A stretch of DNA of 64,000 bases from an uncultured bacterium (lineage in GTDB: Bacteria; Patescibacteriota; Minisyncoccia; UBA6257; 2-01-FULL-56-20): NCBI GenBank assembly GCA_963707865.1, contig OY970175.1, positions 489,493 through 553,492 of the forward strand. The letters run 5' to 3'. Under the pieces are notes generated by a model that searched no databases, had not been told where the DNA came from, and saw nothing but the letters and a program-made list of their open reading frames with translations. Of the stretch, positions 28,985-51,916 are shown piece after piece. Made by a program: the position numbers and the translations under genes. Positions within the stretch are counted from its first letter, which is position 1; every line of letters begins with the position of its first letter.

Positions 28985-28989
28985 TTTCC

Positions 28990-31349: not shown

Positions 31350-31431
31350 TCGTCCTAACGCAACCGTGCCGCGGCGGCGCCGAAACGTGGTGCTTGAAAC
31401 CCCGCATGTTTCTGCTACACTACTATCGTAT

Positions 31432-31713
31432 TCCGGCGTAGCTCAATGGTAGAGCGGCTCCCTGTCAAAGAAGGCAGCGCGCACTGGAAACGGTGCGATG
31501 AACATCTTGGGATAACGGTGAAGGCTAAACCGTATGGTATGCGAACACCGTGGGAACCCTGCGAAAGCGGGGGCTCCGTAGAGACTAGATACCGAGACGC
31601 CTAATGTTCGCTTTTGGTTTTCGCGGACGACGGCGATGATATAGTCCACGCCTTTTGGAAACATTGGGATTCGTGTAAGGAGATGGTTCCAGGTTCGAGT
31701 CCTGGCGCCGGAG
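31432..31713 (+). tRNA. Intron-containing tRNA (anticodon ambiguous: Asn-GTT or Thr-TGT depending on splice site)
   Basis: The 5-prime half TCCGGCG-TA-GCTC-AATGGTA-GAGC-G-GCTCC is interrupted in the anticodon loop. The 3-prime half GGAGA-TGGTT-CCAGG-TTCGAGT-CCTGG-CGCCGGA-G follows. Acceptor stem TCCGGCG/CGCCGGA is perfectly complementary. Confidence 0.7.
31464..31675 (+). ncRNA. Group-I-like intron (~215 nt) in tRNA anticodon loop
   Basis: The insert separates the anticodon stem halves. It contains a P7-like AGACTAGATACCGAGACGCC resembling the cyanobacterial tRNA-Leu group I intron core. Exact boundaries are uncertain by 2-3 nt. Confidence 0.5.
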
Positions 31714-31747
31714 CACCTAGTAAAAGTATCGGACAGACCGGGACGCG
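31686..31747 (+). other. Putative attachment-site core: tRNA 3-prime end plus ~30-bp downstream flank
   Basis: aggttcgagtcctggcgccggagcacctagtaaaagtatcggacagaccggg has near-copies after repeats R5 (37823-37878) and R9 (43286-43343), and a degenerate copy at 33925-33975. Confidence 0.55.
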
Positions 31748-34403: not shown

Positions 34404-34431
34404 TGAGACAGGAGGTTCTAACGTCGTCCAG
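34404..34431 (+). repeat. 28-bp repeat, copy R2
   Basis: ggttctaacgtcgtccagccgccggagc. It shares an extra ~25-bp left flank (tgacaattttaggtgagacaggagg) with R3. Confidence 0.8.
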
Positions 34432-34489
34432 CCGCCGGAGCGGAGATGTTTTGCGGAAATAACTCGCTTATTACCAGGGTAATTTTCAT

Positions 34490-34522
34490 TGACAGTCATT
34501 TGGATAAGTGAAATAGTGCTAG
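34490..34522 (+). promoter_or_regulatory. Putative promoter (TTGACA-17-AATAGT) with strong RBS for GalT-like cassette gene
   Basis: ttgacagtcatttggataagtgaaatagtgct, then gaggaggcaaatcATG. Confidence 0.4.
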
Positions 34523-34555
34523 AGGTTATTTCGCAGATAAGCGAGGAGGCAAATC

Positions 34556-35575
34556 ATGGCATCGGAAATTCGACGGAACCCGATAACCAAGAAGTACGTT
34601 GTAATTGCAACAGACCGGGGTAATCGCCCGTTTGACTTTAAGGACGACTCAGTCGCAAACGACGACTCTCCCGAAGAGTGCCCGTTTTGCCCCGGACACG
34701 AAGGGAAAACTCCACCGACCATTTGGGCATATGGAACGCCTACTAACTGGACGGAAAGAGTGTTCGCCAATAAGTTCGGCGCTTTCAAGATCGAGGGCAA
34801 ACTTGAAAAACGGCGGCGCGGTCTTTTTCGGCTAATGAACGCCAGGGGCGCACACGAGGTCATTGTAGCCACGCCGCGACACGCAGGTCTGTATACCTTG
34901 ACCGACGAAGAAGCAACGAGGACCCTAATCGCATGCAGGGAAAGGATTAACGACCTGAAACTAGCGAGGGAAGAAAACAACGGGGACAAGCCGGGGGACC
35001 TGCTGCTCGCCTACATCATTGTTTTTGGAAACGAGGGGAGGGACGCGGCGGCTTCCAAAAAACACGGACATTTCCAGCTCATCGGCTTGCCGATCATCCC
35101 AGGAGACCTCTGGGAAGAATACCGGCGCGCAGAAGAGTATTGGGAAGATGAAAACACGTGCCTCTTCTGCGACCTCGTGAAGCAAGAAAGAGCGGAGGGA
35201 GAACGCGTTGTGACGGAAAACGACGTATTTCTTTCCGTCTGTGCGTACGCGCCACGGGTTCCTTTCGAAACATGGCTTCTGCCAAAGAGCCACCTCCCCA
35301 TCTTTGAAGATGGGAACGAAAGGACCATGACGGCACTCGCGGAGGTTCTCATGAATACCTTGCGTCGCATGGACAAAGCTCTCCATGGCGTCGCGTTCAA
35401 CCTCTACCTGAAAAACACGCCGTTGTTTGACCGAAATCACGATCGCAGAGTTGACTTTCGTATTGAGATCGTGCCTCGGTTAACAAAGCCCGCCGGATTC
35501 GAGTTCGGTACCGGGGTTTACATCAACCCGGTGCCCCCGGAAACTGCGGCCCAAACCTTGCGAGACGCTGGATGA
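34556..35575 (+). CDS. Galactose-1-phosphate uridylyltransferase-like (HIT superfamily branch III, GalT family)
   Basis: ECPFCPGHEG zinc motif and HGHFQLIG (HxHxQ) active site. Confidence 0.65.
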   Translation: MASEIRRNPITKKYVVIATDRGNRPFDFKDDSVANDDSPEECPFCPGHEGKTPPTIWAYGTPTNWTERVFANKFGAFKIEGKLEKRRRGLFRLMNARGAHEVIVATPRHAGLYTLTDEEATRTLIACRERINDLKLAREENNGDKPGDLLLAYIIVFGNEGRDAAASKKHGHFQLIGLPIIPGDLWEEYRRAEEYWEDENTCLFCDLVKQERAEGERVVTENDVFLSVCAYAPRVPFETWLLPKSHLPIFEDGNERTMTALAEVLMNTLRRMDKALHGVAFNLYLKNTPLFDRNHDRRVDFRIEIVPRLTKPAGFEFGTGVYINPVPPETAAQTLRDAG

Positions 35576-35689
35576 CGTCCAAAAACACGGAGGGATAGAT
35601 GAAGAGAGAATCAAGGGCGCTGACTGAAAGGAGGCAGCGCCCGCTCACCTAAGATTATCGCCAGACTGACAATTTTAGGTGAGACAGGA

Positions 35690-35717
35690 GGTTCTCACAT
35701 CGTCCAGCCGCCGGAGC
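35690..35717 (+). repeat. 28-bp repeat, copy R3
   Basis: ggttctcacatcgtccagccgccggagc, consensus copy. Confidence 0.85.
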
Positions 35718-35720
35718 CGA

Positions 35721-35759
35721 GAAAAAAAGTAGCTGCGAGAAACATCATTTCGCAGCTAC
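35721..35759 (-). terminator. Rho-independent terminator of metallopeptidase cassette gene
   Basis: Hairpin gtagctgcg...cgcagctac followed on the minus strand by T7. Overlaps the last codons. Confidence 0.5.
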
Positions 35760-36317
35760 TTGAGCTATACGCAGCCACTTTCTGATCAGTGCCTGCTGTT
35801 CATCGTCCGGCGGTGGTCCCAGGCGACTTCGAAACTTCTTACCGGGTCCTTGTAGGGTCCAACTCACTGACTCCGCAAAATCCCCGGCGCCGAAGAGATA
35901 GTCTGGACAAGTCCTGCTTAACGACGGCGGATACCAAGGCGTATTCGGTGGCAACTTGCGAAGTGCAAGCCACCCATGTCGCATCTCGGCAGTAAGGAAT
36001 CGCACATCGAAGCCGTGTGCAAGCTCGTGGACGATCGTCGTAGCCACGGCTTCCGGCGACTGTGAGGAACGAATCCAGATATCGATAGTATGTCGCTCGG
36101 GATCGCAAAGACCCAAGAGGTGGGGCCGCCCTTGATGGAACTTAATTTTCCACTCAGGAAATATGGGCCGCCAGTCCCAATTCACTTTCTTCAGAGCTTC
36201 TTGACCAACCTGTTTGTGACGAAGAACCGATAGGGTTTTCTGAGAATGGATTATTTGGGCAAACGACGATGTCGTCGCTATGCCCACAAGAAATACAAGC
36301 ACGACGGGACGCCTCAT
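35745..36317 (-). CDS. Secreted HExxH zinc-metallopeptidase-like protein
   Basis: Signal peptide MRRPVVLVFLVGIATTSSFAQ and IVHELAHGFD. About 80% identical paralog at 50910-51479. Confidence 0.6.
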   Translation of the reverse strand: MRRPVVLVFLVGIATTSSFAQIIHSQKTLSVLRHKQVGQEALKKVNWDWRPIFPEWKIKFHQGRPHLLGLCDPERHTIDIWIRSSQSPEAVATTIVHELAHGFDVRFLTAEMRHGWLALRKLPPNTPWYPPSLSRTCPDYLFGAGDFAESVSWTLQGPGKKFRSRLGPPPDDEQQALIRKWLRIAQVAAK

Positions 36318-36404
36318 CGTTAGCCTCCTCTAGTGAATTTGTTTCCAAGACCTATATTCCTTGTAGCTTGCTATTGATTAACCCGTCAAGGGACAAAGTA
36401 AATA

Positions 36405-36432
36405 GGTTCTAACATCGTCCAGCCGCCGGAGC
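36405..36432 (+). repeat. 28-bp repeat, copy R4
   Basis: ggttctaacatcgtccagccgccggagc. Confidence 0.8.
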
Positions 36433-36526
36433 GGTGATGAGATAATCAAGGATTTCAGCTTCTTGTGGTAGCCAGGCGTGGTAATTCGCCGTTTTCTTTT
36501 AACCGATTCCGAGATACTATGAGCGT

Positions 36527-37813
36527 ATGAAGCCGGTCTACATTATGGAGGATATTGTGCGTCCCAAGCCAGTTGCCAAATCCAACGGCGCGAAGTTTGT
36601 TAAAACGGTTTTGAAATTATCCGGCGTAAAGATCCCCTTTTTTATTTGGTTCGTCATCATCCTTGCCGAAACGGTTGGCATGGTGAGAATCGCGAAGGTA
36701 TCTCAACCGGACGTGGCGATGGATGTCCCCCAAGCGGCGATTATGGTGCAAAACGTCGCCGCGCCTCTCGCTTCTATTTCCACTTCTTCTACTTCTACCG
36801 TCATCTCTACTTCTACTACGGCCACCACAAGTTTTGGATCATTGCCGGTAGTCCAGGTGCCTCCCTTCAAGGCGACGAGTACGGCGACATCCAGCAGAAA
36901 AACCGCCACGCAACCAAGCCAGCCAAAGTCAGCACAAATTCCAACAGCAGTTACCGCGAGGTCGCTCTTGGACGCTACCACGCTTTCCGTGAGCGAGGAG
37001 CATGACGGTCCCTATAAAGTTACATTCGTAACGGACGCGGGCACATACGGCAAGATACCATGGAGTCTGGACGATGCTACGCTCACGGTGAGCGAATCCA
37101 TGCCGAGCTTCTCCGTTTCTTTCTCTTGCAATCCGTTACCAAACACGCCAAATCCCAGCGCACCTGACCAAAATCCGACGTTCGACGTAAGGGCTTCCTA
37201 TACCTGCACTATAGATTTCACTCCTACTTCTGGAAGCGATCATCGGACACAATCCAAGCAATTCTCTTTCGCGACCGGTGCCGGTCAACTCATTATTACA
37301 CCGCCGTCGTCCATGAATACCATGCTTAATAACAACGCAAACTTCGGAGGATTTATTTTCAGGAACGATGATACCCAACCAATCACTATTACCGGGTTGG
37401 ATATTGATGTTTCGTATAGGGGCTTAAATATTATAAATACCCCTTTGGTTTTGAGAGTTGAAAATCCCGCCACCGGAGTTTCACTTGTCGATTACCATTT
37501 AGAGAAACTGGCGGCAGATCCGTCCTCTTCTTATGCGTATGCCGGGACGGACATTCACATCCCGCTTTCCTTTACGCTCGGCGCCACGAGCCAGAAGATG
37601 CTCCCGGTTGATATTTTGGGTGTACAGAGATTGAGTATCTATGGGATTAATCCAACTATCGCTGTCACGCTGCGTGGGGTGACGACAAACCAAAATATGA
37701 ACAAGATAGTGCTCAGCTCCCCTAAAATTTCGTGGTCATGCATCGTTCCCCTTGGCGCATACGATCCCAATGCAACCAGCGGCCCATATGCAACTGGTCA
37801 AGCATGTCAGTAG
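36527..37813 (+). CDS. Secreted/membrane-anchored hypothetical protein with Ser/Thr-rich linker
   Basis: N-terminal TM IPFFIWFVIILAETVGMV. No recognisable domain. Confidence 0.5.
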   Translation: MKPVYIMEDIVRPKPVAKSNGAKFVKTVLKLSGVKIPFFIWFVIILAETVGMVRIAKVSQPDVAMDVPQAAIMVQNVAAPLASISTSSTSTVISTSTTATTSFGSLPVVQVPPFKATSTATSSRKTATQPSQPKSAQIPTAVTARSLLDATTLSVSEEHDGPYKVTFVTDAGTYGKIPWSLDDATLTVSESMPSFSVSFSCNPLPNTPNPSAPDQNPTFDVRASYTCTIDFTPTSGSDHRTQSKQFSFATGAGQLIITPPSSMNTMLNNNANFGGFIFRNDDTQPITITGLDIDVSYRGLNIINTPLVLRVENPATGVSLVDYHLEKLAADPSSSYAYAGTDIHIPLSFTLGATSQKMLPVDILGVQRLSIYGINPTIAVTLRGVTTNQNMNKIVLSSPKISWSCIVPLGAYDPNATSGPYATGQACQ

Positions 37814-37822
37814 CAAACCCGA

Positions 37823-37878
37823 GGTTCTCACGTCATCCAGCCGCCGGAGCACCTGGTAAAAGCATCGGACAGACCGAG
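37823..37878 (+). repeat. Repeat copy R5 with extended tRNA-flank homology
   Basis: ggttctcacgtcatccagccgccggagcacctggtaaaagcatcggacagaccgag parallels the tRNA 3-prime end plus flank at 31686-31747. Confidence 0.85.
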
Positions 37879-37951
37879 AGGGATAGCCCTCGGTATGGGT
37901 AAAAGAAAAAGTGCCTTTCTCAAGGCACTTTCTTCTTGGGGAACAAGACTG

Positions 37952-38182
37952 TTACATCTTCCCTTCATGCTGCGCACAACAACCGCAGGATCTCTTAGCC
38001 AACTTCACACATCCCGCGATGATAATAAGAATCGGCCAGATAATATTGACGAATCCCCACGTAATGACGCCGAGCGCCCCGAGCAGGAAATCAAACCCGA
38101 ACAGGATAACGAGAGCCGGTATGGCCTGGTGACATCCGCACCCACAGGTCTTTCCGCCCATTTTTACACCATCATTTTCCAT
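37952..38182 (-). CDS. Small Cys-rich membrane protein
   Basis: MENDGVKMGGKTCGCGCHQAIPALVILFGFDFLLGALGVITWGFVNIIWPILIIIAGCVKLAKRSCGCC. The longer ORF-track version runs through repeat R6 and is rejected. Confidence 0.35.
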   Translation of the reverse strand: MENDGVKMGGKTCGCGCHQAIPALVILFGFDFLLGALGVITWGFVNIIWPILIIIAGCVKLAKRSCGCCAQHEGKM

Positions 38183-38228
38183 GGTACGTAGTCTTGAGCA
38201 CACTCGACCTTTCTGTTCCATTATATCA

Positions 38229-38256
38229 GTTTTAACATCGTCCAGCCGCCGGAGTC
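38229..38256 (+). repeat. 28-bp repeat, copy R6 (degenerate)
   Basis: gttttaacatcgtccagccgccggagtc. Confidence 0.7.
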
Positions 38257-38261
38257 GAACA

Positions 38262-39584
38262 TCAAAGATTTTTCTTTCGTTTTTTTCTTCGCGAGCTCGA
38301 AGGAAAGTCCGTACCTGCGAACAATTTATTATTCGTAATCGCCTCATGGACGAGACGCGTTACCGCATCATATCCAAGTTTTGGAATAAGGAAAGTTGCG
38401 TACGCCGTTGAACGCTGAAGGAGTTCTCTGCAGCGATCGGGGTCGGCCGTGATGAGGGCAAAACATCGGCGCGAAGCCTGCGTAAGTACTTCATTAATAA
38501 GTTTCCCGGATGCAAGCAATCGATCGGCGATGAGTGGCGTCATTACGCTCAATTCAAGTTGGGCCGCTTGGGCTGCTTCGCGTATTGCAAGGTCGTTTCC
38601 CATCACGAAAAAATGCAACTGATTGAGCGCTTCAAGGAGCACCGGATTTACCTTCCCTGGCATGATCGAGGAACCCGCCTGGAGTGGAGCAATTTCAATC
38701 TCGTGAATGCCACCACGCGGACCGCTTGCAAGAATGCGGAGGTCGTTCGCAATCTTTGAAAGATCAATGGTGAGCATCACGAATGCTGAGGATAGCATAC
38801 AAAAATCAGTGGCACTCATCGTTTGCGCAGAGAGATTCTTGGCGGGACGAAGCGGCAAGTGAAGTGAACTTCGCAAGTCACGATAGAGAACTGCCCTAAA
38901 ACGGGGTGTCACATTTACGCCATTCCCCACCGCACTACCACCCAGATTAAGCTCATAGAGATATTGTATTGCACTCGCAATGCGCTGCCGGTCCCGTTCA
39001 ATAAGCGCCGCGTATGCCGCAAATTCCGCGCCAAGCGTGATAGGAACCGCGTCCTGGAGATGAGTACGTCCAAGCTTTTTTATTTTCCGAAATTCACTTG
39101 CTTTTCGCGTGAGCGTCAGTACGGCCATGTCAGCATTCCGCATCATTTCCTTGGCAATATTAAGACAAGCGATCTTGAGCGCCGAAGGAACCACGTCGTT
39201 CGTGGACTGACCGACATTGACATGATCGTTGGGATGAATAGGAACTTTCCGAGAATGCTTCCTGCGGGACAATAGTGCCATTCCTCTTGCGGCGAGCACT
39301 TCGTTTATATTCATATGGACGGAAGTCCCTGCCCCTCCTTGAAACGAAGGGGTTACAAATTGATCATCCAGTTTTCCGGCTAGGGCCTCTCTGCACGCAC
39401 GAATGATCGCCCGTGCCCGAGGTCGATCAAGAAGCCCTGCGGCAAGGGCTGCATGGGCTGCGGAACGCTTGATCCATATGATGCTTTGGATCAATTCTCG
39501 ACTAACCGGCGGCACCGAAAACGGAAAATTACGAAGTGCTGCTTCGGTTTGCTCACCATAATAATGACGATTTTTTGATGCCAT
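38262..39584 (-). CDS. Aspartate ammonia-lyase/class II fumarase family lyase
   Basis: Fumarate-lyase signature GSSIMPGKVNP, TNDVVPSA, and N-terminal ...ALRNFPFS. Confidence 0.75.
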   Translation of the reverse strand: MASKNRHYYGEQTEAALRNFPFSVPPVSRELIQSIIWIKRSAAHAALAAGLLDRPRARAIIRACREALAGKLDDQFVTPSFQGGAGTSVHMNINEVLAARGMALLSRRKHSRKVPIHPNDHVNVGQSTNDVVPSALKIACLNIAKEMMRNADMAVLTLTRKASEFRKIKKLGRTHLQDAVPITLGAEFAAYAALIERDRQRIASAIQYLYELNLGGSAVGNGVNVTPRFRAVLYRDLRSSLHLPLRPAKNLSAQTMSATDFCMLSSAFVMLTIDLSKIANDLRILASGPRGGIHEIEIAPLQAGSSIMPGKVNPVLLEALNQLHFFVMGNDLAIREAAQAAQLELSVMTPLIADRLLASGKLINEVLTQASRRCFALITADPDRCRELLQRSTAYATFLIPKLGYDAVTRLVHEAITNNKLFAGTDFPSSSRRKKRKKNL

Positions 39585-39639
39585 AAATGTCCGTATAAAT
39601 CCAGTATATCAAAGTTAGATTTTTTCCAGCTCCCACGCA

Positions 39640-39668
39640 GGTTCTCACGTCGTCCAACCGCCGGGAGC
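39640..39668 (+). repeat. 28-bp repeat, copy R7
   Basis: ggttctcacgtcgtccaaccgccgggagc. Confidence 0.75.
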
Positions 39669-39698
39669 GGCTATTTGATGCGGACAAGAGCTCCATTC

Positions 39699-42608
39699 TT
39701 AATGCATGTAGTTTGAAACCACGTCGTGCACGGTTTTCACGAGGATCTGGCCGGTTCCCGTTCCTTGTTTGCTTTGCAAGTATGCTACGGTGTCTTGCAG
39801 TACCGCTTTTGTCGTGCCTTCCGGCTCGCTTGCGAGCGCGCTGGTTGACGTTTCAATCTGGTGCAGCATCAGCGTGAGCCACACTTTGTTCTGTGCCGCA
39901 TAATCTATCCAGGAATGGATCGTGCTCGTCGTAACCGTGGCATCCACGCTCTGAATTTTGAGCTCAAGCCGATTCGTTACGGTAAAGTTATATCCCACAT
40001 TCACGCTACGAGCGGCGACGATGCCGTTCGCGGTCAAATCCGCTTCAACGATACTGTTACCCGAGCCGTCGCCGTACGGATATGCGAAAGTGTCTACGGG
40101 GGAAACACCGATCGCAAGGAGCGCGGTGCGAGCGTTCCCGATCTCTTGGTTTGCCGAAAGCGGGTCAGGTGAGTTCGGCGGATCGCCATCCGGGCAGAGT
40201 CCCGTCAAGAGATCACAGTGGAACACGGTGTGGTCACCGATCTCTTCGCCATAGGTTTTTTGGAGCGCAAGGACGGTGGATGCGTTCATGTAATCATTGC
40301 CCTCATTGCCAGCCATCGCATCCGAGATGATATAGAATGTAGCGTGCATGCCCGCGGCGTTCAAGATCGGCACGGCATTATTGAACTGCGACTGCCAGCC
40401 GTCGTCAAAAGTAAGGGAGACCAACCCTTGCGGGAAGAGATCTGCGGTTGAGGAGCCGAGTGGCGCGAGCGAGTAGTGTGCGGTACTGAGCGACCCAACG
40501 CCGGCAATCAAATGATAAATTGTAACTGAAGCGGCGTTTGCGGGCGCAACGACCTGCTGGGTCGTTGATGCCCATCCGGACGTGGGACCGAACCCCGAAA
40601 TATAGTTGGCCGCCGTCCCACCATTCGTGAGCGTCCATAAGGCATCGATTTCGGTGGTAGCGGTCGAGTTATACCAGTCGGAGAAAACGTAGGTCGCGTT
40701 CGGTGTCACGGGCACATTGTCAAAAACCCAGGTCGCATCACCGTTGGTATAACTCGATATGGCAACTTTCTCGGCTTTGTCGGTACCGTTCGGCCCCGCG
40801 ACGGGATACGTGTAGGTAGCAGTGTTCGTGCCATAACCCCCATGTGACCAATGATCGGGCACCGTACTTGAAACTGTTGCGTTAGCGAGGTCGGGATTTA
40901 AAATAAGATTCGTAGGCGGCGGGGGCGGTGGCACCGCGGCTGCGATATTCACCGTATAACTTTGCGTTGAAGAACTCGTGCCATTCGTCGCCTTAACCGA
41001 GAATGTTGAGGTGGCGTTCGTGGTCGGGGTCCCAGAGATCTTGTCGGTTGCACTGGTTGAGGTGCCAAGAGAAAGGCCGCTCGGCAGACTACCAGACGCG
41101 ATGCTCCACGTGAAAGGTCCCGCTGCCGTCGTCGAAGCCGTGAGGGTTTGCGAATATGCGACGCCCACGGTGCCGTTGGGCAGCGTGGATGGGTTGATCG
41201 TGAGCGCGGGGGAGGGGGCGGGCGCCGCACTCACCGTGAAGGTAATGTGATTGGAGGTGGTGGAAGAGAGATTGGAAAACACGTATTGTTCGTCATAGGT
41301 GCCGACATAACTTGAGAGGAGCTTTTGCTGCATGCTCCAGTTACCGTTTGCGTCCGTGCTGCTGTAATTGAGAAGTGGGGGCTGCGCCACGCCGTTCAGG
41401 GTATAGTCTATGCTGAAATTCGTACTGGGGATATTTGAAGTCACCGCGTAGGTCACGGTCTGGCCTACGGTGAAGCTGCCGCTCGTCGCATTATTGATCG
41501 TGAGGGCAGCCAAGGGGACCGGGACCGGCATGATAATTGTGGCCGTGGCAGAACCGCCCAGACCTGTAACGGTATAGTTTATAGTAGCGGCATAGCCAGC
41601 CTCACAAGTCGGTATAATGCCACTAGTACTCATACCCGCATTATTAGCGACCCACCCACCACTAGAACCCCAGAAACAGGACCAGGGCGGGGAAGCCGGA
41701 GCTATGGTGAAATTAGAAGAATAGCTGCTGCCATTGCTGGAGGACCAGGTATATTTTATAGTGTCGCCCACATTCACTGTTAGGGTAGGTTTGGTGGTAC
41801 CGTTGGTATCGCTGATGGTTTTGCCGGTTGTTATGTCAGTGGCCGAGAGGGTGGCGGTGGGCAGCGTCCCGCTCGCCGTGATCGCGATATTCACCGTATA
41901 GCTTTGCGTTGAAGAACTCGTGCCATTCGTCGCCTTAACCGAGAATGTTGAGGTGGCGTTCGTGGTCGGGGTCCCAGAGATCTTGTCGGTTGCACTGGTT
42001 GAGGTGCCAAGAGAAAGGCCGCTCGGCAGACTACCAGACGCGATGCTCCACGTGAAAGGTCCCGCTGCCGTCGTCGAAGCCGTGAGGGTTTGCGTGTACG
42101 CGACGCCCACGGTGCCGTTGGGCAGCGCGGATGGGTTGATCGTGAGCGCGGGGGGAGGCGGCGTTACCGTCCCGACGGTCACTGCGTTATTCAGCGTGAA
42201 GGTAGCACTCGGTCCGGCATTGGATACTGAAGTGCAGTTCATACCACTGTAAGCAACGAAATAGGCGTTGTACGTGCCTGTGCTTGTCGGAGCTTTTACG
42301 TTGAAACTTGCCGAATACGTCCCGGCAGAAAGTCGCAAACCAGTATTGACGCAGGCGAACGCTCCCGGACTCGCAGCTATTCTCCACCCGGTCGATATCC
42401 AATCGCCGGCCCATCCGAATCCCGTCGTTTGTACGGTCACCTTGGCCGAAACGGTCGCTCCCCCATTCACCGCAACTGAAGTTGCACCGTTTAATGTAGC
42501 AGAAAGAACTGTCCGCGCGGCATTGGCCGCAAGCGGCATACCCACGAGTATTACCGCTCCACTAAGGAAAAGCGATGAGATCAATAAAGAATACTTGCGC
42601 TTTAACAT
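39699..42608 (-). CDS. Large secreted protein with duplicated putative-Ig (He_PIG-like) domains and C-terminal polysaccharide deacetylase (NodB) domain
   Basis: Signal peptide. Two ~93-aa near-identical repeats (...GPFTWSIASGSLPSGLSLGTSTSATDKISGTPTTNATSTFSVKATNG...). NodB motif LTFDDGWQSQ. Confidence 0.65.
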   Translation of the reverse strand: MLKRKYSLLISSLFLSGAVILVGMPLAANAARTVLSATLNGATSVAVNGGATVSAKVTVQTTGFGWAGDWISTGWRIAASPGAFACVNTGLRLSAGTYSASFNVKAPTSTGTYNAYFVAYSGMNCTSVSNAGPSATFTLNNAVTVGTVTPPPPALTINPSALPNGTVGVAYTQTLTASTTAAGPFTWSIASGSLPSGLSLGTSTSATDKISGTPTTNATSTFSVKATNGTSSSTQSYTVNIAITASGTLPTATLSATDITTGKTISDTNGTTKPTLTVNVGDTIKYTWSSSNGSSYSSNFTIAPASPPWSCFWGSSGGWVANNAGMSTSGIIPTCEAGYAATINYTVTGLGGSATATIIMPVPVPLAALTINNATSGSFTVGQTVTYAVTSNIPSTNFSIDYTLNGVAQPPLLNYSSTDANGNWSMQQKLLSSYVGTYDEQYVFSNLSSTTSNHITFTVSAAPAPSPALTINPSTLPNGTVGVAYSQTLTASTTAAGPFTWSIASGSLPSGLSLGTSTSATDKISGTPTTNATSTFSVKATNGTSSSTQSYTVNIAAAVPPPPPPTNLILNPDLANATVSSTVPDHWSHGGYGTNTATYTYPVAGPNGTDKAEKVAISSYTNGDATWVFDNVPVTPNATYVFSDWYNSTATTEIDALWTLTNGGTAANYISGFGPTSGWASTTQQVVAPANAASVTIYHLIAGVGSLSTAHYSLAPLGSSTADLFPQGLVSLTFDDGWQSQFNNAVPILNAAGMHATFYIISDAMAGNEGNDYMNASTVLALQKTYGEEIGDHTVFHCDLLTGLCPDGDPPNSPDPLSANQEIGNARTALLAIGVSPVDTFAYPYGDGSGNSIVEADLTANGIVAARSVNVGYNFTVTNRLELKIQSVDATVTTSTIHSWIDYAAQNKVWLTLMLHQIETSTSALASEPEGTTKAVLQDTVAYLQSKQGTGTGQILVKTVHDVVSNYMH

Positions 42609-42689
42609 AAAGTATTTGCGGTCTTTGATTGACCGATGCGCACATGATAATTTAGTTTGGCAATTTTTGTCAAATCAAGGGCCTACAAA

Positions 42690-42717
42690 GGTTCTCACAT
42701 CCTCCAGCCGCCGGAGC
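42690..42717 (+). repeat. 28-bp repeat, copy R8
   Basis: ggttctcacatcctccagccgccggagc. Confidence 0.8.
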
Positions 42718-42786
42718 ACCTAAGTAGTAATCACTAAGTTATTGTGATAATATACACAAGTTCGTTTTATTTAGAAAAGAAAAGGC

Positions 42787-43236
42787 ATGAGCAAGAAAAG
42801 TTTTGAAAATAGGGTTGTGGACGCGCAGGGCATCGAAAAGGGAACTGACCCCGAAAACAGTTACCAACACTATCTGGAATTGGGAGGGATTATCAACGAA
42901 AAAGATTATCGGGGTGCTCTTGATAGGATTAATATAACACGCACACCCGACAGAGAGAATCAGCAAGTAAGAAATTCTATACAGCAGGCATTGGAAATGG
43001 CAGGACACGCAGGGATTAAATTAAATGATTCAGAAGACATCCTCGATCCAAAGATTGTATTGTATGTAACACTACGTAGCGACACCAAGCCCGAGGGTGT
43101 AAAATACCACCACAGTCAAATGAGCGACCAGCGCATATTTGGAGAAGCTCTGAGAATGTTGGGAGATGCTGATTCTCTTGATAAATTGATTAAAGCTTAT
43201 CCGAATATTTCCTTCAAATATAAAAGAGGAGAATAG
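42787..43236 (+). CDS. Hypothetical protein
   Basis: A 149-aa ORF with good RBS context, followed by a terminator. Confidence 0.45.
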   Translation: MSKKSFENRVVDAQGIEKGTDPENSYQHYLELGGIINEKDYRGALDRINITRTPDRENQQVRNSIQQALEMAGHAGIKLNDSEDILDPKIVLYVTLRSDTKPEGVKYHHSQMSDQRIFGEALRMLGDADSLDKLIKAYPNISFKYKRGE

Positions 43237-43250
43237 GTTTCTCGGAGTGT

Positions 43251-43276
43251 ATGCCGACTTAATGTCGGCTTTTTCG
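43251..43276 (+). terminator. Rho-independent terminator
   Basis: gccgacttaatgtcggc followed by ttttt. Confidence 0.6.
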
Positions 43277-43285
43277 TCCCAAACA

Positions 43286-43343
43286 GGTTCTCACATCGTC
43301 CAGCCGCCGGAGCACATAGTAAAAGCATTGGGCAGACCGGGAG
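43286..43343 (+). repeat. Repeat copy R9 with extended tRNA-flank homology
   Basis: ggttctcacatcgtccagccgccggagcacatagtaaaagcattgggcagaccgggagg. Confidence 0.85.
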
Positions 43344-43468
43344 GCCATAATAAAACCTGTGAATAAGAACTTACAGCCGGGATCACATCGAAAGCATCGC
43401 CTGCCCTTTTTGTTTTTCAAAAATAAGGGTGGTACGCCTTGGTCTACTAGGGCGAATTAGAGAATGAA

Positions 43469-43873
43469 ATTATTTTGCGCCGCCGTGAAGCTTTCGCCTT
43501 TTGGCTTCGGCTTGGCGTACGCGGGATTCGTCCATGCCAAAATGGTGGGCAATTTCATGCCAAACCGTATCTCTCACAATCCTTTTAATGTCTTCCTTAT
43601 TGGTAGCCTCGTCTTCAATTGACTTTTGAAAGATAGTATTTTATCGGGGAGCACGGCAGTATAGTTCGCCCCTCGCGATACCTGCGGCACTCCTTCGTAT
43701 AAGCCATAGAGTGTCCAGCTTGGATGGATGTTCAGCTTCTTTTTCTGGGCCGGTGTTGGCTCGTCGTCAATCACGATCGCTACATTGTCCAATTTCCGCA
43801 GGAACTTTTCCGGAACCGCGCGTATTCCTTCCTCTATAATTTTCTCAAATTCGTCACGATTTAATTTCAGCAT
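43469..43873 (-). pseudogene. COG3824/DUF1025-type minimal zinc-metallopeptidase-like gene, frameshifted
   Basis: The 43574-43873 ORF covers the N-terminal part (...LYGLYEGVPQVSRGANYTAVLPDKI...). The HExxH part VRDTVWHEIAHHFGMDESRV... continues in another frame at 43469-43573. Confidence 0.5.
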
Positions 43874-43999
43874 AAATTGATTTTGCCGATTCGTCGTTCA
43901 TTGATTTATATAGAACCCGTTTACAAGCTACCAAAAATAATACTATTAGTAAAGATTATCTATTTTCACGAAGTTCAGTGATGGGCTAGACACAAAGAA

Positions 44000-44938
44000 A
44001 TGCTCGGCAGCGTCAAATTTTGTTATTATAAATTAACTATGGGTGGAAATATTGAAGGATTTATTCCTCTTCGCGGAGGTAGGGTATGGTATAAGATTGT
44101 CGGAAAGTCCCACACCATTCCAATTATTGTGGTTCACGGAGGACCTGGGTATCCGCACGATTATCTTGAACCCTTAGAGGATCTAGGAGCGAAGCGACAG
44201 GTAATTTTTTATGACCAACTTGGCTGTGGCAATTCTCACAAAACAATCGATCCTGCGCAATGGACCATCGAGCAATTTGTTGTCGAGCTTCAAAAAATCA
44301 TTGAATTTCTTAACTTGGAGAAATATTATGTTCTTGGCCAATCATGGGGTTCGGCTCTGGCCGTCGCTTTTGCTCTCACGAAACCAAAAGGGCTTGAGAG
44401 TCTCATTTTCTCTGATCCTTATATGAGCACTCCGTATTGGGTCAAAGATGCCGAGCGACTCATCCAATCACTCCCAAGAGAGATGCAGGTTGCACTTAAA
44501 AATTTGCCGAGCGATTCCGAGGGGTACAAACAAGCATCAAAGGAATATGACGTACGATTTGTGCGCCATTTAGATCCATACCCGGAAGCCTGCAAAAGAT
44601 CAGACATAAAAATGAACCGAGCGATGTATCACTATATGTGGGGACCGGAAGAATTTCTGCTGAACGGAACCCTCATGAATTTCGACCCAACGCCGCAATT
44701 TTCAGAAATCAACATTCCAGTGTTGTTCTTATGTGGACGACATGATGAGGCAACCCCTGAAACAACAGAGTACTTCAAAAGCCTTTTTCCAAACGCTCAA
44801 ATCAAAGTTTTTGAAAACAGCGCCCACTTTCCTTTCTGGAACGAGCGAAAACATTATATGCAGACAATCAAAAATTTTCTTGAGACCATCGAGGGGCGCC
44901 CCAAATCTCTTACTTTCTGGCCATTAAGCAGGTTCTAA
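44000..44938 (+). CDS. Proline iminopeptidase (S33 alpha/beta hydrolase)
   Basis: IIVVHGGPGYPHDYL, catalytic GQSWGS, and a C-terminal His region. Confidence 0.75.
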   Translation: MLGSVKFCYYKLTMGGNIEGFIPLRGGRVWYKIVGKSHTIPIIVVHGGPGYPHDYLEPLEDLGAKRQVIFYDQLGCGNSHKTIDPAQWTIEQFVVELQKIIEFLNLEKYYVLGQSWGSALAVAFALTKPKGLESLIFSDPYMSTPYWVKDAERLIQSLPREMQVALKNLPSDSEGYKQASKEYDVRFVRHLDPYPEACKRSDIKMNRAMYHYMWGPEEFLLNGTLMNFDPTPQFSEINIPVLFLCGRHDEATPETTEYFKSLFPNAQIKVFENSAHFPFWNERKHYMQTIKNFLETIEGRPKSLTFWPLSRF

Positions 44939-44958
44939 TGTCGTTCAGCCGCCGGAGC
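44931..44958 (+). repeat. 28-bp repeat, copy R10 (overlaps stop codon of iminopeptidase)
   Basis: ggttctaatgtcgttcagccgccggagc. Confidence 0.75.
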
Positions 44959-45325
44959 GGATAGTTTTGAGAAATGGGCTTACATCGCAAACCCCCTGCC
45001 CAGGTCGAACATGGGGCAGAGGGTTTGGATATAAATATGATTAAGTTATAAGGTGTTGGTAAGATGGCGGGAAAGCGATAACGAAGCGCTAAGAACAACG
45101 AGGGGTTCTCCGAAGCCGTGGCGTTCATTTACCCGGCTTTGCTTAAGAACCTTGCTTGACCGAATCGGCCAGATTAGTTGTTCAGCGAGCTTTCCCACGA
45201 TCGCTCATAGCATGAAGTTGTTGTCTTTTGTTTTATTTTTAGGACCTTTGGTTGCTCCACCCGGCTCCATGGCGCCGGCATACCTATTACTACTTACTAC
45301 AACGGCCCGGCGCGTTTCTTTCACC

Positions 45326-46000
45326 CTATAGGCCGATCTTTTTAACCCCGAAGGGGTGGATGGTCCTGCTCGCATCCGAATTGCCGAAAACCACGACAGG
45401 ATCGCCTACCCCAAGCATCCCAAAGGAACTCGTAGGCACTAGTATGACCGTCGTAGTCTCTCCGTCAGAATCCCGCAATATGAACCCGTTCTCAAGAAAA
45501 GAAACGATCTGGCCCCGATGCACGGCGCTCGGAATTGATTCCTCGAGTTCGTAGAATCCATTGATAAAAGGAATGTGGTCCTCCGCGGCATAATTGATGA
45601 TCGCGTAGTGAAGAGACGCAGGGATGATAAGAAATCCAGCTACCGCAGGGAGACCGGCGATGATCACTAATAGGTAGAGCATTGGGCGGTGATAGATAAA
45701 GGCGTACCGCCACGCGAATATGGCGATCGCCAGGGCGAAGAGAAGGGATAAGAAGACGAGGATGAGCGGCAGGGATTGGAGAAAAAGATACCAACCGGAG
45801 AACCCGAAGTCGCGAGCAAACCACGCGCCGCTCTCGTGCAGGGCAAAGATGATAAAGCTCACGATAAAGATGAGGCACAAGAAGAGAACGACGCCGACCG
45901 CCGCCACAAGCACTGCTTGCAAAACAAAATACCACTTCGGCCGCATCTTTGCTTTGCCGCCTTTGATCGTTTCCAAAACTTTTTCTTCAACGTCGTTCAT
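45326..46000 (-). CDS. Multi-TM membrane protein, putative anti-sigma factor (by context)
   Basis: Downstream of the ECF sigma gene and overlapping it by 4 nt. Three to four TM helices. Function is inferred only from gene order. Confidence 0.4.
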   Translation of the reverse strand: MNDVEEKVLETIKGGKAKMRPKWYFVLQAVLVAAVGVVLFLCLIFIVSFIIFALHESGAWFARDFGFSGWYLFLQSLPLILVFLSLLFALAIAIFAWRYAFIYHRPMLYLLVIIAGLPAVAGFLIIPASLHYAIINYAAEDHIPFINGFYELEESIPSAVHRGQIVSFLENGFILRDSDGETTTVILVPTSSFGMLGVGDPVVVFGNSDASRTIHPFGVKKIGL

Positions 46001-46566
46001 ATATGGTGTTCTTGCTCGATGAGCTTCTTGAGCATAATTCTCCCCCGCTGCAGACGCACGCCCACCGTGGAGATTGGAATGTGTAAAATATCCGCGATCG
46101 CCTTATAATCCATCTCCTCAAAATAATACAAGACAAGTGGCTCTTTGTACTTTTGGCCGAGTTGGTCAAGCGACCGGTCAAGCATTTTTTTCGCTTCTTG
46201 GTGGTTGATATTCCCGTCGGCGGTTTCCTTGGCGACCAGGTGGGGGAAAAGGATGTCGAAATCAAAAAGGGAAGTATTCCTTTTTTCTTTTTGTTTCTTC
46301 TTGAGCGCGTTTATGAACTCATTATGGGCAATCCGATACAGCCACGGCGAAAACCGCTGGGTGCTGTCAAAGCTCTGTATATTCGCGTACGCCTTAATGA
46401 AAACCTCCTGCACAAGATCTTTCGTCTCTTCACCGTCGAAAAGAAAACGCTTTGCGTAGCGGGTCATCTTTGGCGCATATCGCTCCACAAGGACACGAAA
46501 CGATTCAACGTCGCCGGCTTGCACTTGCCTCGCGATATTCTCATCTTTTGGTTGGTGCATACCCAT
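45997..46566 (-). CDS. ECF-subfamily RNA polymerase sigma-70 factor
   Basis: Region 2 (DLVQEVFIKAY...WLYRIAHNEFIN) and region 4 HTH (MDYKAIADILHIPISTVGVRLQRGR). Confidence 0.8.
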   Translation of the reverse strand: MGMHQPKDENIARQVQAGDVESFRVLVERYAPKMTRYAKRFLFDGEETKDLVQEVFIKAYANIQSFDSTQRFSPWLYRIAHNEFINALKKKQKEKRNTSLFDFDILFPHLVAKETADGNINHQEAKKMLDRSLDQLGQKYKEPLVLYYFEEMDYKAIADILHIPISTVGVRLQRGRIMLKKLIEQEHHI

Positions 46567-46627
46567 TCATGCATAGACACCCGCTCTTAATACTACAACC
46601 AAACCCCTGTTTTGTTTCACCACGTGC

Positions 46628-46654
46628 GGTTCTCCCGTCGTCCAGCCGCCGAGC
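46628..46654 (+). repeat. 28-bp repeat, copy R11 (1-nt deletion)
   Basis: ggttctcccgtcgtccagccgccgagc. Confidence 0.7.
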
Positions 46655-46665
46655 CGTTAATTTCA

Positions 46666-47460
46666 CTACTGTTCCATAAACCCAACCGTAGCGGGAATAT
46701 CCCCCTTAAATGACACTTGGTCGCCGGCTCCGATGTGAGCCGACTCGCTTTTGATTCCTGCTTCATCCAAACGGTTCTGCGCAAAATCCAAAATCACTTT
46801 TTGATTATCGGTGAAAACGCTCACTGGCACCGGTAGCCGGCCTATTTCCAGCTTCTGCAGTCCACCACTTATTTCCCCGTTCGCCACATCCACACTCCCT
46901 TTAATATAAATAGGCGGGTTGGGGGCAAAGACGCTTACCTTATCCAGCCAAAATTTGACATCATTCATACTGATACCAGTTGCGGCGGCATAGCCGTAGA
47001 TCCTGTCGGTGCGCAATATTCCGGAAAGTTCCGCCGTTCCGTCAGAATTGAAACGAACTTGCGCATCGGAAATCGGATAGTATTTCCACATTTTTTCCTG
47101 CAGAGCCATCAATGCCGTCAACTCTTTATCGGTAAATGTTGCGTCTATCGCCTTGCTTCCCGTCAATGAATACGTTGCGATTGACCCGGTCGGCAATGAC
47201 ATGTAGCGAATGCCTGTTTTTGCCTGGATTGACCCGCTATCCCCGGAATCGGGCACAACACCCAAATCCCTGGGCTTATCGGACCCGAAAATTTTGGATA
47301 CTCCCGGCACGAATCCTAGATAACCTAGCACCAACACGAGAACCACCAAAACGGTGATTACTGCATAAAGTAATTTTTTTGCTATCCCTCCTCTCCGGGA
47401 TGTTACCGCCAATTGTTCATTCATGGTGCGAGAGTGAATACTATTTTTGCCCTTGCTCAT
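46666..47460 (-). CDS. Membrane-anchored hypothetical protein
   Basis: Start moved to MSKGKN. The ORF-track N-terminus MKHAPAAGRYES is simply the reverse translation of repeat R12. TM helix LLYAVITVLVVLVLVLGYLGF. Confidence 0.45.
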   Translation of the reverse strand: MSKGKNSIHSRTMNEQLAVTSRRGGIAKKLLYAVITVLVVLVLVLGYLGFVPGVSKIFGSDKPRDLGVVPDSGDSGSIQAKTGIRYMSLPTGSIATYSLTGSKAIDATFTDKELTALMALQEKMWKYYPISDAQVRFNSDGTAELSGILRTDRIYGYAAATGISMNDVKFWLDKVSVFAPNPPIYIKGSVDVANGEISGGLQKLEIGRLPVPVSVFTDNQKVILDFAQNRLDEAGIKSESAHIGAGDQVSFKGDIPATVGFMEQ

Positions 47461-47474
47461 AGTATACCACCTTG

Positions 47475-47502
47475 GGCTCTCATATCGTCCAGCCGCCGGA
47501 GC
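47475..47502 (+). repeat. 28-bp repeat, copy R12
   Basis: gggctctcatatcgtccagccgccggagc, directly abutting the IS481-family element. Confidence 0.75.
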
Positions 47503-48505
47503 ATGTTTCATGTCCGTACATTTGTCCCCTCGATAGATTGAAGATATTCGACCGGCGTCTTTCCGGCAAGGGCAAGGTGAGGACAGATGGTATTGTACCA
47601 GGCACAGTAAGCGGCCTGTTTTTGTTTTGCCTCGGCCACGGTGCGGAACGCCACCTTGTTCCAGAACCGTTCCCGGTCGTTGCGGTGGGAACGTTCCACC
47701 TTGCCGTTCTGCGCGGGATGCCCGGGAGCGATGAGATAGTGGACCATCTTCTGTTTTGCGCAGGCGAGGTCGAACGGATGCAACCGCGGCTTCATGGGGT
47801 CAGCTGATTTCGGATATCCTATGTAGCGATTCGTAAAGATGGATCCGTTGTCGGTCTTCACCGCACGGATGCGGAACGGTGCGGCCGCAATGACCCTTTC
47901 GAGAAACAGGATCGCGGTTCTCGTGGATTGTTCCTGGGTTACCCACAGATGCCGCCACCGGGTGCAGCAGTCGATCGCGGTGAACTGGTAGAGCCAGTTG
48001 CCCTTGAATTTCCTCACGTAGACGACGTCGATCTCCACCATCTCGCCGGGGAACGTGGCCGTCGGTTTCCACTTTTCCTTGGGCGTGAGACGCTTCTTCG
48101 TACGCGAGAGGCCTTCACGCTTCAATACTTTTGCAATGCCGCGTGCCGAGAGCCGCATGCCTTCGCGGGCGAGGAGGTGTACGAGCACGTCCGGACCGAG
48201 ATCGGTCTCCGTTCTCATAGTCCGGATCTTTTTCACGATATCTCGCGAAAACTGTTTTGGGTGTGCGTGCGGCCTGCGCGATCTGGGCACGAGGGCGCTC
48301 GCCCCGCCACTGCGATATGCCGCCACCCAACGCTTCAGCGTACGGTATGAAAATGGTGCGTGGGCAGCAATGGCCTTGATGCTCATCTCTTTTTCAAGAT
48401 GCGGCCTGATCCACCGCATTCGTTCCTCCGCTGCGTCTTTGGCAAGTGTTTGTGGCATATTCCCCAGCTTACGCTTCGAGGGGCCATATGTATGTGCAGA
48501 GTACC
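47495..48505 (-). mobile_element. IS481-family insertion sequence (distinct from the 57.4/63.1 kb copies)
   Basis: Carries the 316-aa DDE transposase. Imperfect terminal inverted repeats of the type TGTCCGTACAT / ATGTATGTGCA. Exact ends are uncertain. Confidence 0.5.
47508..48458 (-). CDS. IS481-family DDE transposase
   Basis: N-terminal HTH, integrase catalytic core with DNGSIFTN...NGKVERSH. Confidence 0.85.
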   Translation of the reverse strand: MPQTLAKDAAEERMRWIRPHLEKEMSIKAIAAHAPFSYRTLKRWVAAYRSGGASALVPRSRRPHAHPKQFSRDIVKKIRTMRTETDLGPDVLVHLLAREGMRLSARGIAKVLKREGLSRTKKRLTPKEKWKPTATFPGEMVEIDVVYVRKFKGNWLYQFTAIDCCTRWRHLWVTQEQSTRTAILFLERVIAAAPFRIRAVKTDNGSIFTNRYIGYPKSADPMKPRLHPFDLACAKQKMVHYLIAPGHPAQNGKVERSHRNDRERFWNKVAFRTVAEAKQKQAAYCAWYNTICPHLALAGKTPVEYLQSIEGTNVRT

Positions 48506-48616
48506 AGCACTAATTGACGGATTAACGGCCTTGTGCTACAACACTAAATCACGGGATCGTGGCGGCGAGGACGCCTGATTCATCAAAAAAGAGTCTTTCT
48601 ATAATACAATAACGAC

Positions 48617-50452: not shown

Positions 50453-50457
50453 GTTAA

Positions 50458-50862
50458 TTGGAGCTTAGTTCGAGCATCGGCGCCGGAGCGGATATTGTAA
50501 TAGTTTGGAAAATAGCTCAGAATGAATTTATGAAAACCTCCCCTCGAACCGTCGGATTCGTTCAGGCTGCCGGTTTGACATTATACGTGAGTCTTTTCGC
50601 CGTGTTCATCCAGCAAGCGCAAAGTTGGTTCTTATTTCACGGCGTTCAAGCTAGTCCTGCTATGAGCATCGTCCTTTTCCTGCTCGCCTTTGTCATCTCG
50701 GCGCTCATCTGTGGCTCGCTGATCCTGGGCTACCCGCTTCTGCTTTTCTCTTCCGGCCAGCACAACGAGGCGATGAAAATCGTTCTCTGGAGTCTCCTTT
50801 GGCTCGTCGTCCTAGCCCTCTGCATCGCGCTTATTGGTTTCTCTTTCCTGTCGAGGTTCTAA
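50458..50862 (+). CDS. Small membrane protein (4 TM)
   Basis: A hydrophobic 134-aa ORF. Its stop codon lies within repeat R13. Confidence 0.45.
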   Translation: MELSSSIGAGADIVIVWKIAQNEFMKTSPRTVGFVQAAGLTLYVSLFAVFIQQAQSWFLFHGVQASPAMSIVLFLLAFVISALICGSLILGYPLLLFSSGQHNEAMKIVLWSLLWLVVLALCIALIGFSFLSRF

Positions 50863-50882
50863 CGTCCTCCAGCCGCCGGAGC
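50855..50882 (+). repeat. 28-bp repeat, copy R13
   Basis: ggttctaacgtcctccagccgccggagc. Confidence 0.8.
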
Positions 50883-50909
50883 GGAGAAAAAAAGTAGCCG
50901 CGGGAAACA

Positions 50910-51479: not shown

Positions 51480-51566
51480 CGTTGGCCTCCTCTAGTGAAT
51501 TCGTTTCCAAGACCTATCTTCCTTGTAGCTCGCTATTGATTAACTCGTCAAGGGATAAAGTAAGCA

Positions 51567-51594
51567 GGTTCTCACATCGTCCAGCCGCCGGAGC
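51567..51594 (+). repeat. 28-bp repeat, copy R14
   Basis: ggttctcacatcgtccagccgccggagc, consensus copy. Confidence 0.85.
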
Positions 51595-51652
51595 ATATGT
51601 GCTATAATGAGCGTCAAGGTCGAAAAGATAATTTTCGAAAGTAAATACTATT

Positions 51653-51847: not shown

Positions 51848-51851
51848 ATAA

Positions 51852-51883: not shown

Positions 51884-51916
51884 TTCTTTTAGATTGATGT
51901 TCGTCAACCTCGCCCA

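Follow-up and report, generated by a model that had tools for sequence, protein, structure and literature searches.

A survey by Williams in 2020 extended the known types of bacterial tRNA intron from 4 to 21 cases, including Asn.4Ug (bioRxiv 10.1101/2020.01.27.920355). Nakagawa et al. (2026, mSystems, PMC13011429) reported that such introns are enriched in Patescibacteria and self-splice in vitro, and that some harbor HNH endonuclease genes; self-splicing in vitro was shown for two introns located between tRNA positions 35 and 36 (35/36), and 25 of the 28 introns at this site were classed in subgroup IA (PMC13011429). The locus described here, in a stretch of DNA of 64 kb that was analyzed as a whole ("the window"), compares closely with these systems. 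Positions 31432 to 31713 of the plus strand very probably represent a functional tRNA-Asn(GUU) gene, in which a self-splicing group I intron of 210 nt splits the anticodon loop between U35 and U36. This assignment is backed here by the sequence, the fold, covariation, the match of the junction to an ortholog that lacks the intron, and homology to catalogued introns; catalysis itself, tetraloop-receptor docking, and a role of the product as the working tRNA-Asn of the cell are predicted from these features. By current knowledge, the intron is ordinary, its class having been published between 2020 and 2026.

The host is a member of the Patescibacteria with a genome of ∼0.9 Mb. A glyceraldehyde-3-phosphate dehydrogenase (GAPDH) gene lies 3 kb from the tRNA, on a contig of 898,885 bp, and its named homologs (78 to 80% identity) come from Patescibacteria and Minisyncoccia. 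The window intron is like the Asn.4Ug class of Williams and Nakagawa et al. in host tRNA, insertion site, boundaries (CUGU↓...GUG↓UAA, arrows marking splice sites), phylum, and even the erroneous Thr(UGU) call by ARAGORN. Membership in Asn.4Ug is further indicated by the GUU product of an Asn host tRNA, by homology to catalogued members, and by the patescibacterial host, the last of which reflects an enrichment of 35/36 Asn introns, not a strict requirement. In the compared part of the supplement of Nakagawa et al. (Table S3, PMC13011429), a Paceibacteria tRNA-Asn intron (GCA_030583765.1) has the same boundaries, and its pre-tRNA is ∼80% identical to that of the window over the aligned positions, with the blocks GGGATAACGGTGAAG, ACCGTGGGAACCC, GCCGTAGAGACTAGATACC, and GATATAGTCCACGCC in common; the exact window sequence was not found in this part of the supplement. 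Two differences from published members should be mentioned. Four published Asn introns contain an HNH endonuclease open reading frame (ORF), whereas the 210 nt of the window intron hold no ORF and no homing-endonuclease gene, with stop codons in all three forward frames. Furthermore, the tRNA-Asn intron that was spliced in vitro (GCA_016700035.1, Saccharimonadia type) has a core that differs from that of the window intron, which counts against the assignment.

The first-pass annotation of this DNA had described two tRNA halves folding into a cloverleaf around an insert of ∼215 nt in the anticodon loop. The gene consists of a 34-nt 5' exon, the insert, and a 38-nt 3' exon in which CCA is not encoded; the location of the insert thus stands, and its length is corrected to 210 nt. 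As had been claimed, the acceptor stem (TCCGGCG/CGCCGGA) is perfectly complementary, and the D arm (GCTC-AATGGTA-GAGC) and T arm (CCAGG-TTCGAGT-CCTGG) are both present; pair 27-43 is G·A, a point against a functional gene. Default ARAGORN and Rfam at gathering thresholds reported nothing at the locus and, in the window, only tRNA-Lys (2566) and tRNA-Glu (18031). An intron-aware search with ARAGORN yielded one split tRNA with a 210-nt intron. Once these 210 nt are removed, the halves form a single cloverleaf that matches the intron-less ortholog, and they are not separate tRNA pseudogenes. The window holds a single copy of the 29-nt tRNA 3' end (0 expected by chance), and therefore the halves constitute one gene, not scattered fragments. 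The 5' exon is identical in two related contigs, L110 and L124. A consensus scan placed a promoter-like site, TTGAAA-16 nt-TACACT, just upstream of the gene (Table 1); by this pattern match, it is a putative promoter.

The intron displays the features by which group I introns are recognized, namely, a P1 helix with a U·G pair at the splice site (U35 at 31465 with G31474), a core of P3-P8 and P4-P6 domains with the P3/P7 pseudoknot, and the terminal omega-G. The stretch AGACTAGATACCGAGACGCC, previously singled out as a P7/P3 core resembling that of cyanobacterial tRNA-Leu introns, is present at 31582-31601 and does belong to the core, its exact cover being P7(5')-J7/3-P3(3')-start of P8; the cyanobacterial introns are not the nearest relatives. 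The minimum free energy (MFE) fold of the intron alone gives P2, P3, P4, P5/P5a, P6/P6a, and P8/P8a. Two observations weigh against the assignment: the MFE z-score of the intron is only −1.81, and the window copy of P9 contains two U·U mismatches. The GCUAAA...UAUGC internal loop of P5 may be read as a receptor. In the proposed group I model search, the Rfam model Intron_gpI (RF00028), run in E-value mode, matched 31451-31668 across its whole length with 22.6 bits and a local E of 0.0014; the gathering score is 50. The Rfam group I seed includes no bacterial members, and cut-offs of 18 to 20 bits were used by Williams (bioRxiv 10.1101/2020.01.27.920355); because of this composition of the seed, the sub-threshold score is attributed to limited sensitivity of the model.

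Table 1. Positions of the tRNA-Asn gene, its intron, the downstream repeats, and the tRNA-Asn genes of relatives (window coordinates unless a contig is named)
Feature	Position	Strand	Remarks
Promoter-like site TTGAAA-16 nt-TACACT (with TG)	31394..31421	+	Consensus scan; ends 11 nt 5' of tRNA
tRNA-Asn 5' exon	31432..31465	+	Acceptor 5' strand, D arm, anticodon stem 5' strand, C32 U33 G34 U35
Group I intron, 210 nt	31466..31675	+	Complete compact P1-P9; helices drawn by hand
P1	31462..31477	+	CUGU↓C (31462-31466) with GGCAG (31473-31477); holds internal guide sequence
P2 hairpin CGCACUG-GAAA-CGGUGCG	31480..31497	+	L2 is a GNRA tetraloop; in MFE fold
P3 5' strand UCUUGG	31505..31510	+	Partner 31592-31597
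P4-P5-P6 domain	31515..31577	+	Alignment pairing and MFE fold
P4 ACGGUG/CACCGU	31515-20/31546-51	+	
P5	31524-25/31541-42	+	GCUAAA...UAUGC internal loop, 11-nt-receptor-like
P5a	31529-31/31536-38	+	
P6	31552-53/31576-77	+	
P6a	31557-62/31567-72	+	GAAA loop
P7 5' strand GACUA	31583..31587	+	Inside conserved GUAGAGACUAGA; partner 31642-31646; expected guanosine-binding helix
P3 3' strand CCGAGA	31592..31597	+	Partner 31505..31510
P8 (CGCC/GGCG) and P8a (GUUCGC/GCGGAC)	31598..31635	+	CCUAA...GACGG receptor-like internal loop
P7 3' strand UAGUC	31642..31646	+	J8/7 GAUGAUA directly 5'
P9 hairpin CCUUUUG-GAAA-CAUUGGG	31651..31668	+	L9 is a GNRA tetraloop
Omega-G, final intron nucleotide	31675	+	G in 14/14 homologs; boundary as in the compared part of Nakagawa Table S3
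tRNA-Asn 3' exon	31676..31713	+	U36 A37 A38, anticodon stem 3' strand, variable loop, T arm, acceptor 3' strand, G73
tRNA 3' end GTCCTGGCGCCGGAGC	31699..31714	+	Resembled by downstream repeats; L110 synteny ends here
Array of at least 12 copies of AGGTTCT[AC]AC[GA]TCGTCCAGCCGCCGGAGC (29 nt)	34413..51944	+	Separates mostly single genes
Exact or near motif copies	34413, 35689, 36404, 37822, 42689, 43285, 44930, 47474, 50854, 51566, 51916	+	
Degenerate motif copies	38227, 39639	+	
Outlying motif copy	19412-19440	+	
Partial motif copy	18340-18353	+	
Motif remnant	about 33958-34000		
tRNA-Asn of relative L122	2501-2773	-	Intron of window type
tRNA-Asn of relative L123	2093-2165	-	Intron-less
tRNA-Asn of relative L124	7275-7595	-	Different 248-nt group I intron, same 35/36 site, exons identical to those of the window

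To search for homologs, 185,579 species genomes were scanned with the pattern GTAGAGACTAGA-N30-60-ATAGTCC, which retrieved at least 120 loci. Most of the loci among the matches listed were placed by ARAGORN in interrupted tRNAs, namely, Leu(UAA) (44), CAU (12, for example, in Polynucleobacter), and Asp(GUC) (7), and interrupted Arg, Ser, Phe, and Thr tRNAs were also among them. Five listed loci were called "Thr(tgt), intron at 33" and show the exon pattern UCC...CUGU↓...GUG↓UAA...GGAG, which corresponds to Asn. Many contigs, the majority assigned to Patescibacteria, show the same boundaries of the insert in the anticodon loop. Fourteen introns (6 Asn and 8 Asp) were aligned with MAFFT, and the hand-drawn P1-P9 structure was counted on this alignment. 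In the 14 homologs, 94.7% of the cells pair, compared with 37 to 48% when the 3' partners are slid by 1 to 3 columns. Compensatory changes on both sides occur in 24 of the 47 pairs, and the observed values were reached in none of 500 shuffles. Most of these changes sit in P2 (7/7 pairs), P3 (5/6, with 100% of the cells paired), P8 (3/4), and P9 (5/7); furthermore, the first pair of P4 switches from A-U to U-A in 6 of the 14, and the U·G wobble of P1 is kept in 14/14 next to a pair that covaries (AU in 7, GC in 4, CG in 2, and UG in 1). The invariance of P7 and J8/7 is uninformative because both motifs formed the search pattern. Because P1-P9 fold into a group I core with covariation support in the 14 homologs, the objection raised in the first-pass annotation, that no such core might be foldable, fails.

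It is improbable that the intron is a decayed, non-splicing relic and the tRNA gene a pseudogene. The sub-threshold Rfam score, the mismatches in P9, and the absence of a homing endonuclease would all fit decay. However, endonuclease genes are missing from most published tRNA introns too (PMC13011429), and all core helices, the U·G wobble, and omega-G are intact in the window. Moreover, the same intron is found in the relatives L110 and L122, with 94% and 93% identity to the window, respectively; the pairs of P1, P2, P4, and P7 are unchanged, and the differences lie at the tips of P5a, P6a, and P8a, where pairing is mostly kept, including the P8a changes of L110. Divergence has thus spared the core and left the peripheral stems paired, the exons do not differ from those of L110 and L124, and the promoter-like site precedes the gene, all of which speak against a relic.

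The identity of the tRNA depends on the splice junction, as the first-pass annotation had pointed out in leaving the anticodon as either GTT (Asn) or TGT (Thr). Two junctions are formally possible: CU↓...G↓UGUAA, giving Thr(UGU), and CUGU↓...GUG↓UAA, giving Asn(GUU). The former, with the intron between positions 33 and 34, is the output of ARAGORN -i [Thr(tgt) i(33,210)], and a U precedes this junction, as a G ends this version of the intron; it is nonetheless highly improbable. In the 14 aligned introns, U35 pairs with G in 14/14 and U33 with A in 14/14, which places the P1 wobble at U35. No intron-less tRNA-Asn for isotype comparison was present among the loci fetched by the P7 and J8/7 motif, and relatives for this comparison were fetched via the GAPDH gene. 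When joined at 35/36, the exons of L122 reproduce the intron-less tRNA-Asn(GTT) of L123 in 73 of 73 positions, whereas the 33/34 product does not match; the window exons are identical to the L123 gene at 67 of 72 positions. U1-A72 and G73 are features of tRNA-Asn. The window tRNA carries both; G1 is instead the first base of the Thr tRNAs in the fetched loci. Finally, the same Thr(UGU) miscall by ARAGORN has been documented in homologs, where it was disproved by sequenced spliced products (PMC13011429). The ambiguity is thus resolved in favor of a predicted tRNA-Asn(GUU) with the intron between positions 35 and 36, and the Thr alternative falls.

The notion that the insert is an unrelated insertion (an IS, a MITE, or an island fragment), or that the halves are separate tRNA pseudogene fragments, draws on the location at an integration hot spot with many repeats resembling the tRNA 3' end, but has a negligible probability given the covarying group I fold, the position in the anticodon loop with equal boundaries over many, mostly patescibacterial contigs, the absence of a transposase and of terminal repeats, and the perfect pairing of the halves in the acceptor stem.

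For the self-splicing group I intron in tRNA-Asn(GUU), the following pathway is proposed. A single precursor of ∼282 nt would be transcribed from the gene and would fold into a ribozyme with GAAA-capped P2 and P9, receptor-like motifs in P8 and P5, P3-P8 and P4-P6 domains, and the P3/P7 pseudoknot. The last exon bases, CUGU, would form P1 with the internal guide GCAG, with U35·G as the splice-site wobble. An exogenous guanosine bound in P7 would cleave after U35; the terminal G31675 would then occupy the same guanosine site, and the free 3'-OH of U35 would attack after G31675, joining ...CUGU to UAA... to give the loop CUGUUAA.

Close relatives allow comparison of the gene across a narrow lineage. 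The closest, L110 (OY970382.1), is represented by an 888-kb chromosome, and the GAPDH genes of L122, L123, and L124 are 82 to 84% identical. The intron of L124 and the in-vitro-spliced Saccharimonadia intron share blocks, including GGTGAATTGC.GGAAGCC and GGTTCAGAGACTA; in 8-mers, the L124 intron has 29 in common with the Saccharimonadia intron and 13 with the window intron. One tRNA gene therefore exists in three states within this lineage, that is, without an intron, with the window intron, and with an unrelated intron at the same site. As a lesser novelty, these three states would imply that group I introns are still being gained or replaced here, with no homing endonuclease resident in the intron. 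Elsewhere, two patescibacterial tRNA-Asn introns of this family, in L105 (about 7300-7646) and L031 (at a contig end), have a P1 loop with an ORF whose last residues, ...CANCHREIEAG, form an HNH-like motif; these ORFs fit the published HNH endonucleases of Asn 35/36 introns.

The first-pass annotation had also taken the tRNA to be the integration anchor of the downstream repeats, and this proposal is supported by a break of synteny at 31714, by the likeness of the repeats to the tRNA 3' end, and by eight other contigs in which tRNA-Asn is followed by the repeat motif. Positions 2-6160 of L110 align with window positions 25679-31714 at 83.6% identity, and nothing is aligned beyond the tRNA 3' end. 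There, the gene for a large serine recombinase abuts the tRNA in L110, and an operon encoding ArsR, thioredoxin, a permease, and rhodanese takes its place in the window. The open frame of L110 (6200-7648, minus strand) continues into the strand antisense to the tRNA. Of two hallmarks of a tRNA-targeted element, the locus shows gene order conserved as far as the tRNA 3' end with divergence past it; the other, an integrase adjoining the tRNA, is missing, and a Pfam scan of the ∼50 ORFs of the window found no serine or tyrosine recombinase or integrase. A link between the array and a serine recombinase of the L110 type was rejected, as a tblastn search of the window with the L110 protein gave no significant hit and homologs occur in only 2 of ∼124 motif-bearing loci. 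About 100 nt on the 3' side of tRNA-Asn (31714-31810) have a partly conserved counterpart in L123 (TAGTATCGG[AG]CAGACCG[AG]GA), without a match in Rfam; this segment contains a hairpin, the stem of which differs (AGTCCT...AGGACT in the window and GTCCTA...TAGGAC in L123).

Between 34.4 and 52 kb, the 29-nt motif stands between almost every pair of genes; with the outlying copy, the window holds 13 or more copies, all of them in plus orientation. Its 3' part equals the tRNA 3' end (GTCCTGGCGCCGGAGC) at 14 of 16 positions, and the tRNA's own downstream flank follows three of the copies. The module at 35689-36432, which carries a minus-strand ORF of 189/190 amino acids, is duplicated at 50854-51594 with ∼88% identity from motif to motif and unrelated flanks, as expected of a discrete mobile module. 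The exact 21-mer of the motif occurs in at least 120 metagenome contigs, where the 5' part is conserved and the 3' part varies like the acceptor ends of tRNA-Asn (xxxGGAG-CCA). Among the matches listed, each of the 72 loci with multiple copies has all of them on the same strand, with a median spacing of 787 bp, and 9 of the 20 tRNAs in motif loci are tRNA-Asn, 8 of these 9 being located upstream of the motif on the same strand. The repeats are dispersed, and TRF found no tandem array near the tRNA. No recurrent recombinase was detected among 543 clustered ORFs from motif loci.

Several other origins of the repeat were considered and rejected. A phage attP origin found no support in IMG/VR, with 0 exact hits of the 21-mer and 23 hits of a 17-mer, which is about the number estimated by chance; the latter lie in unrelated coding sequence, except for the prophage-edge contig L247. 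A tRNA-like fold of the repeat was dropped because the strands of its putative T stem fail to pair. Site anatomy speaks against an integron attC: by inspection, the motif is without a GTTRRRY partner. Searches of the literature found no published description of such tRNA-Asn-linked arrays.

Additional features of the window were noted. The last ∼19 nt of tRNA-Glu(UUC) at 18031 are repeated ∼210 nt downstream (18311-18332), followed immediately by the partial motif GCAGCCGCCGGAGC and then by an NYN-domain gene (18755-19351) that ends in the full motif copy at 19412; the region 18031-18353 looks like a second, small insertion site. At 33860-34000, the minus strand contains a T-arm-like GGTTCGAATCCTGGAC, and the plus strand contains a stretch similar to P5 of the intron (GGCTAAACCG..GAACAC), followed by a diverged tRNA 3' end and flank (GTCGGAGCAC...AGTATCAGACAGACCGGAGAGCG); these tRNA- and intron-like pieces are probably recombination scars. 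A 395-aa ORF with a reverse-transcriptase domain (RVT_1) at 8837-10024 on the minus strand may be part of a group II intron, a retron, or a diversity-generating element. Finally, three IS481-like DDE transposase genes (rve/rve_3 and HTH) are located at 47508-48458 (minus strand), 57430-58365 (plus strand), and 63126-63974 (minus strand), the first of them inside the cassette array and adjoining the motif copy at 47474-47502.

These observations have practical and evolutionary implications. Standard annotation misses the gene or calls it tRNA-Thr, so that a 0.9-Mb genome would seem to be devoid of tRNA-Asn, which distorts estimates of its completeness and views of its decoding capacity. The intron-less allele, the window intron, and the second intron type in identical exons form a natural series that could serve in studies of how patescibacterial introns are gained and replaced. 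The array is the more interesting lead and merits a study of its own: the tRNA 3' end is the apparent attachment point of a widespread, one-strand cassette array with tRNA-like boundary sites, and, if this is true, the array would be a new means by which bacteria with very small genomes acquire genes. We tentatively suggest, as a possibility somewhat short of an even chance, that the intron-bearing tRNA-Asn heads a hitherto undescribed cassette system of Patescibacteria resembling integrons, in which single-gene modules with a 29- to 33-nt site (AAAC-AGGTTCTAACATCGTCC-AGCC-NNNGGAGC), the 3' half of which mimics the T-stem and acceptor end of tRNA-Asn, would be inserted serially behind the tRNA 3' end by a recombinase whose gene lies elsewhere.

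In the Azoarcus intron, P2 and P9 are capped by GAAA loops, P8 and P5 contain receptor motifs, and the core includes the motifs GUAGAGACUAGA and AUAGUCC. The window intron has, by inspection, the same compact layout, in which no additional helices separate P3' from P8; both introns are located in the anticodon loop of a bacterial tRNA, and their sizes are similar (205 nt in a precursor of 284 nt in Azoarcus; 210 nt in 282 nt in the window). However, the Azoarcus intron interrupts a different tRNA after the third anticodon base, not at 35/36, and sequence likeness is confined to the core. For the window intron, IA, the subgroup of most published 35/36 introns, and IC3, named in the first-pass annotation, are both candidate subgroups. 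The tRNA-Leu(UAA) intron of cyanobacteria and plastids is likewise a self-splicing group I intron in an anticodon loop, but Leu(UAA) introns are inserted at 34/35, whereas the window intron is at 35/36 of tRNA-Asn and is thus not of the Leu type. The P7 and J8/7 motifs are common to many tRNA-Leu(UAA), tRNA(CAU), and tRNA-Arg introns, and the 44 Leu(UAA) loci among the matches listed come mostly from Proteobacteria and Acidobacteriota, not cyanobacteria. The nearest relatives of the window intron are, instead of the cyanobacterial tRNA-Leu introns proposed initially, the tRNA-Asn and tRNA-Asp 35/36 introns of Patescibacteria.

The array combines features of two known systems and differs from both in that there is no integrase near the tRNA or anywhere in the 64-kb window and no integrase gene in the cassettes. 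An IntI gene at the head is likewise absent, and the sites, about 29 to 33 nt long, are without the inverted R''/R' boxes of integron attC. Like tandem islands at tRNA sites, the locus shows a break of synteny at the tRNA 3' end and direct repeats that resemble this end. Like integron arrays, it consists mostly of single-gene cassettes separated by sites in one orientation, in varied contexts, and includes one module that is present twice with different neighbors.
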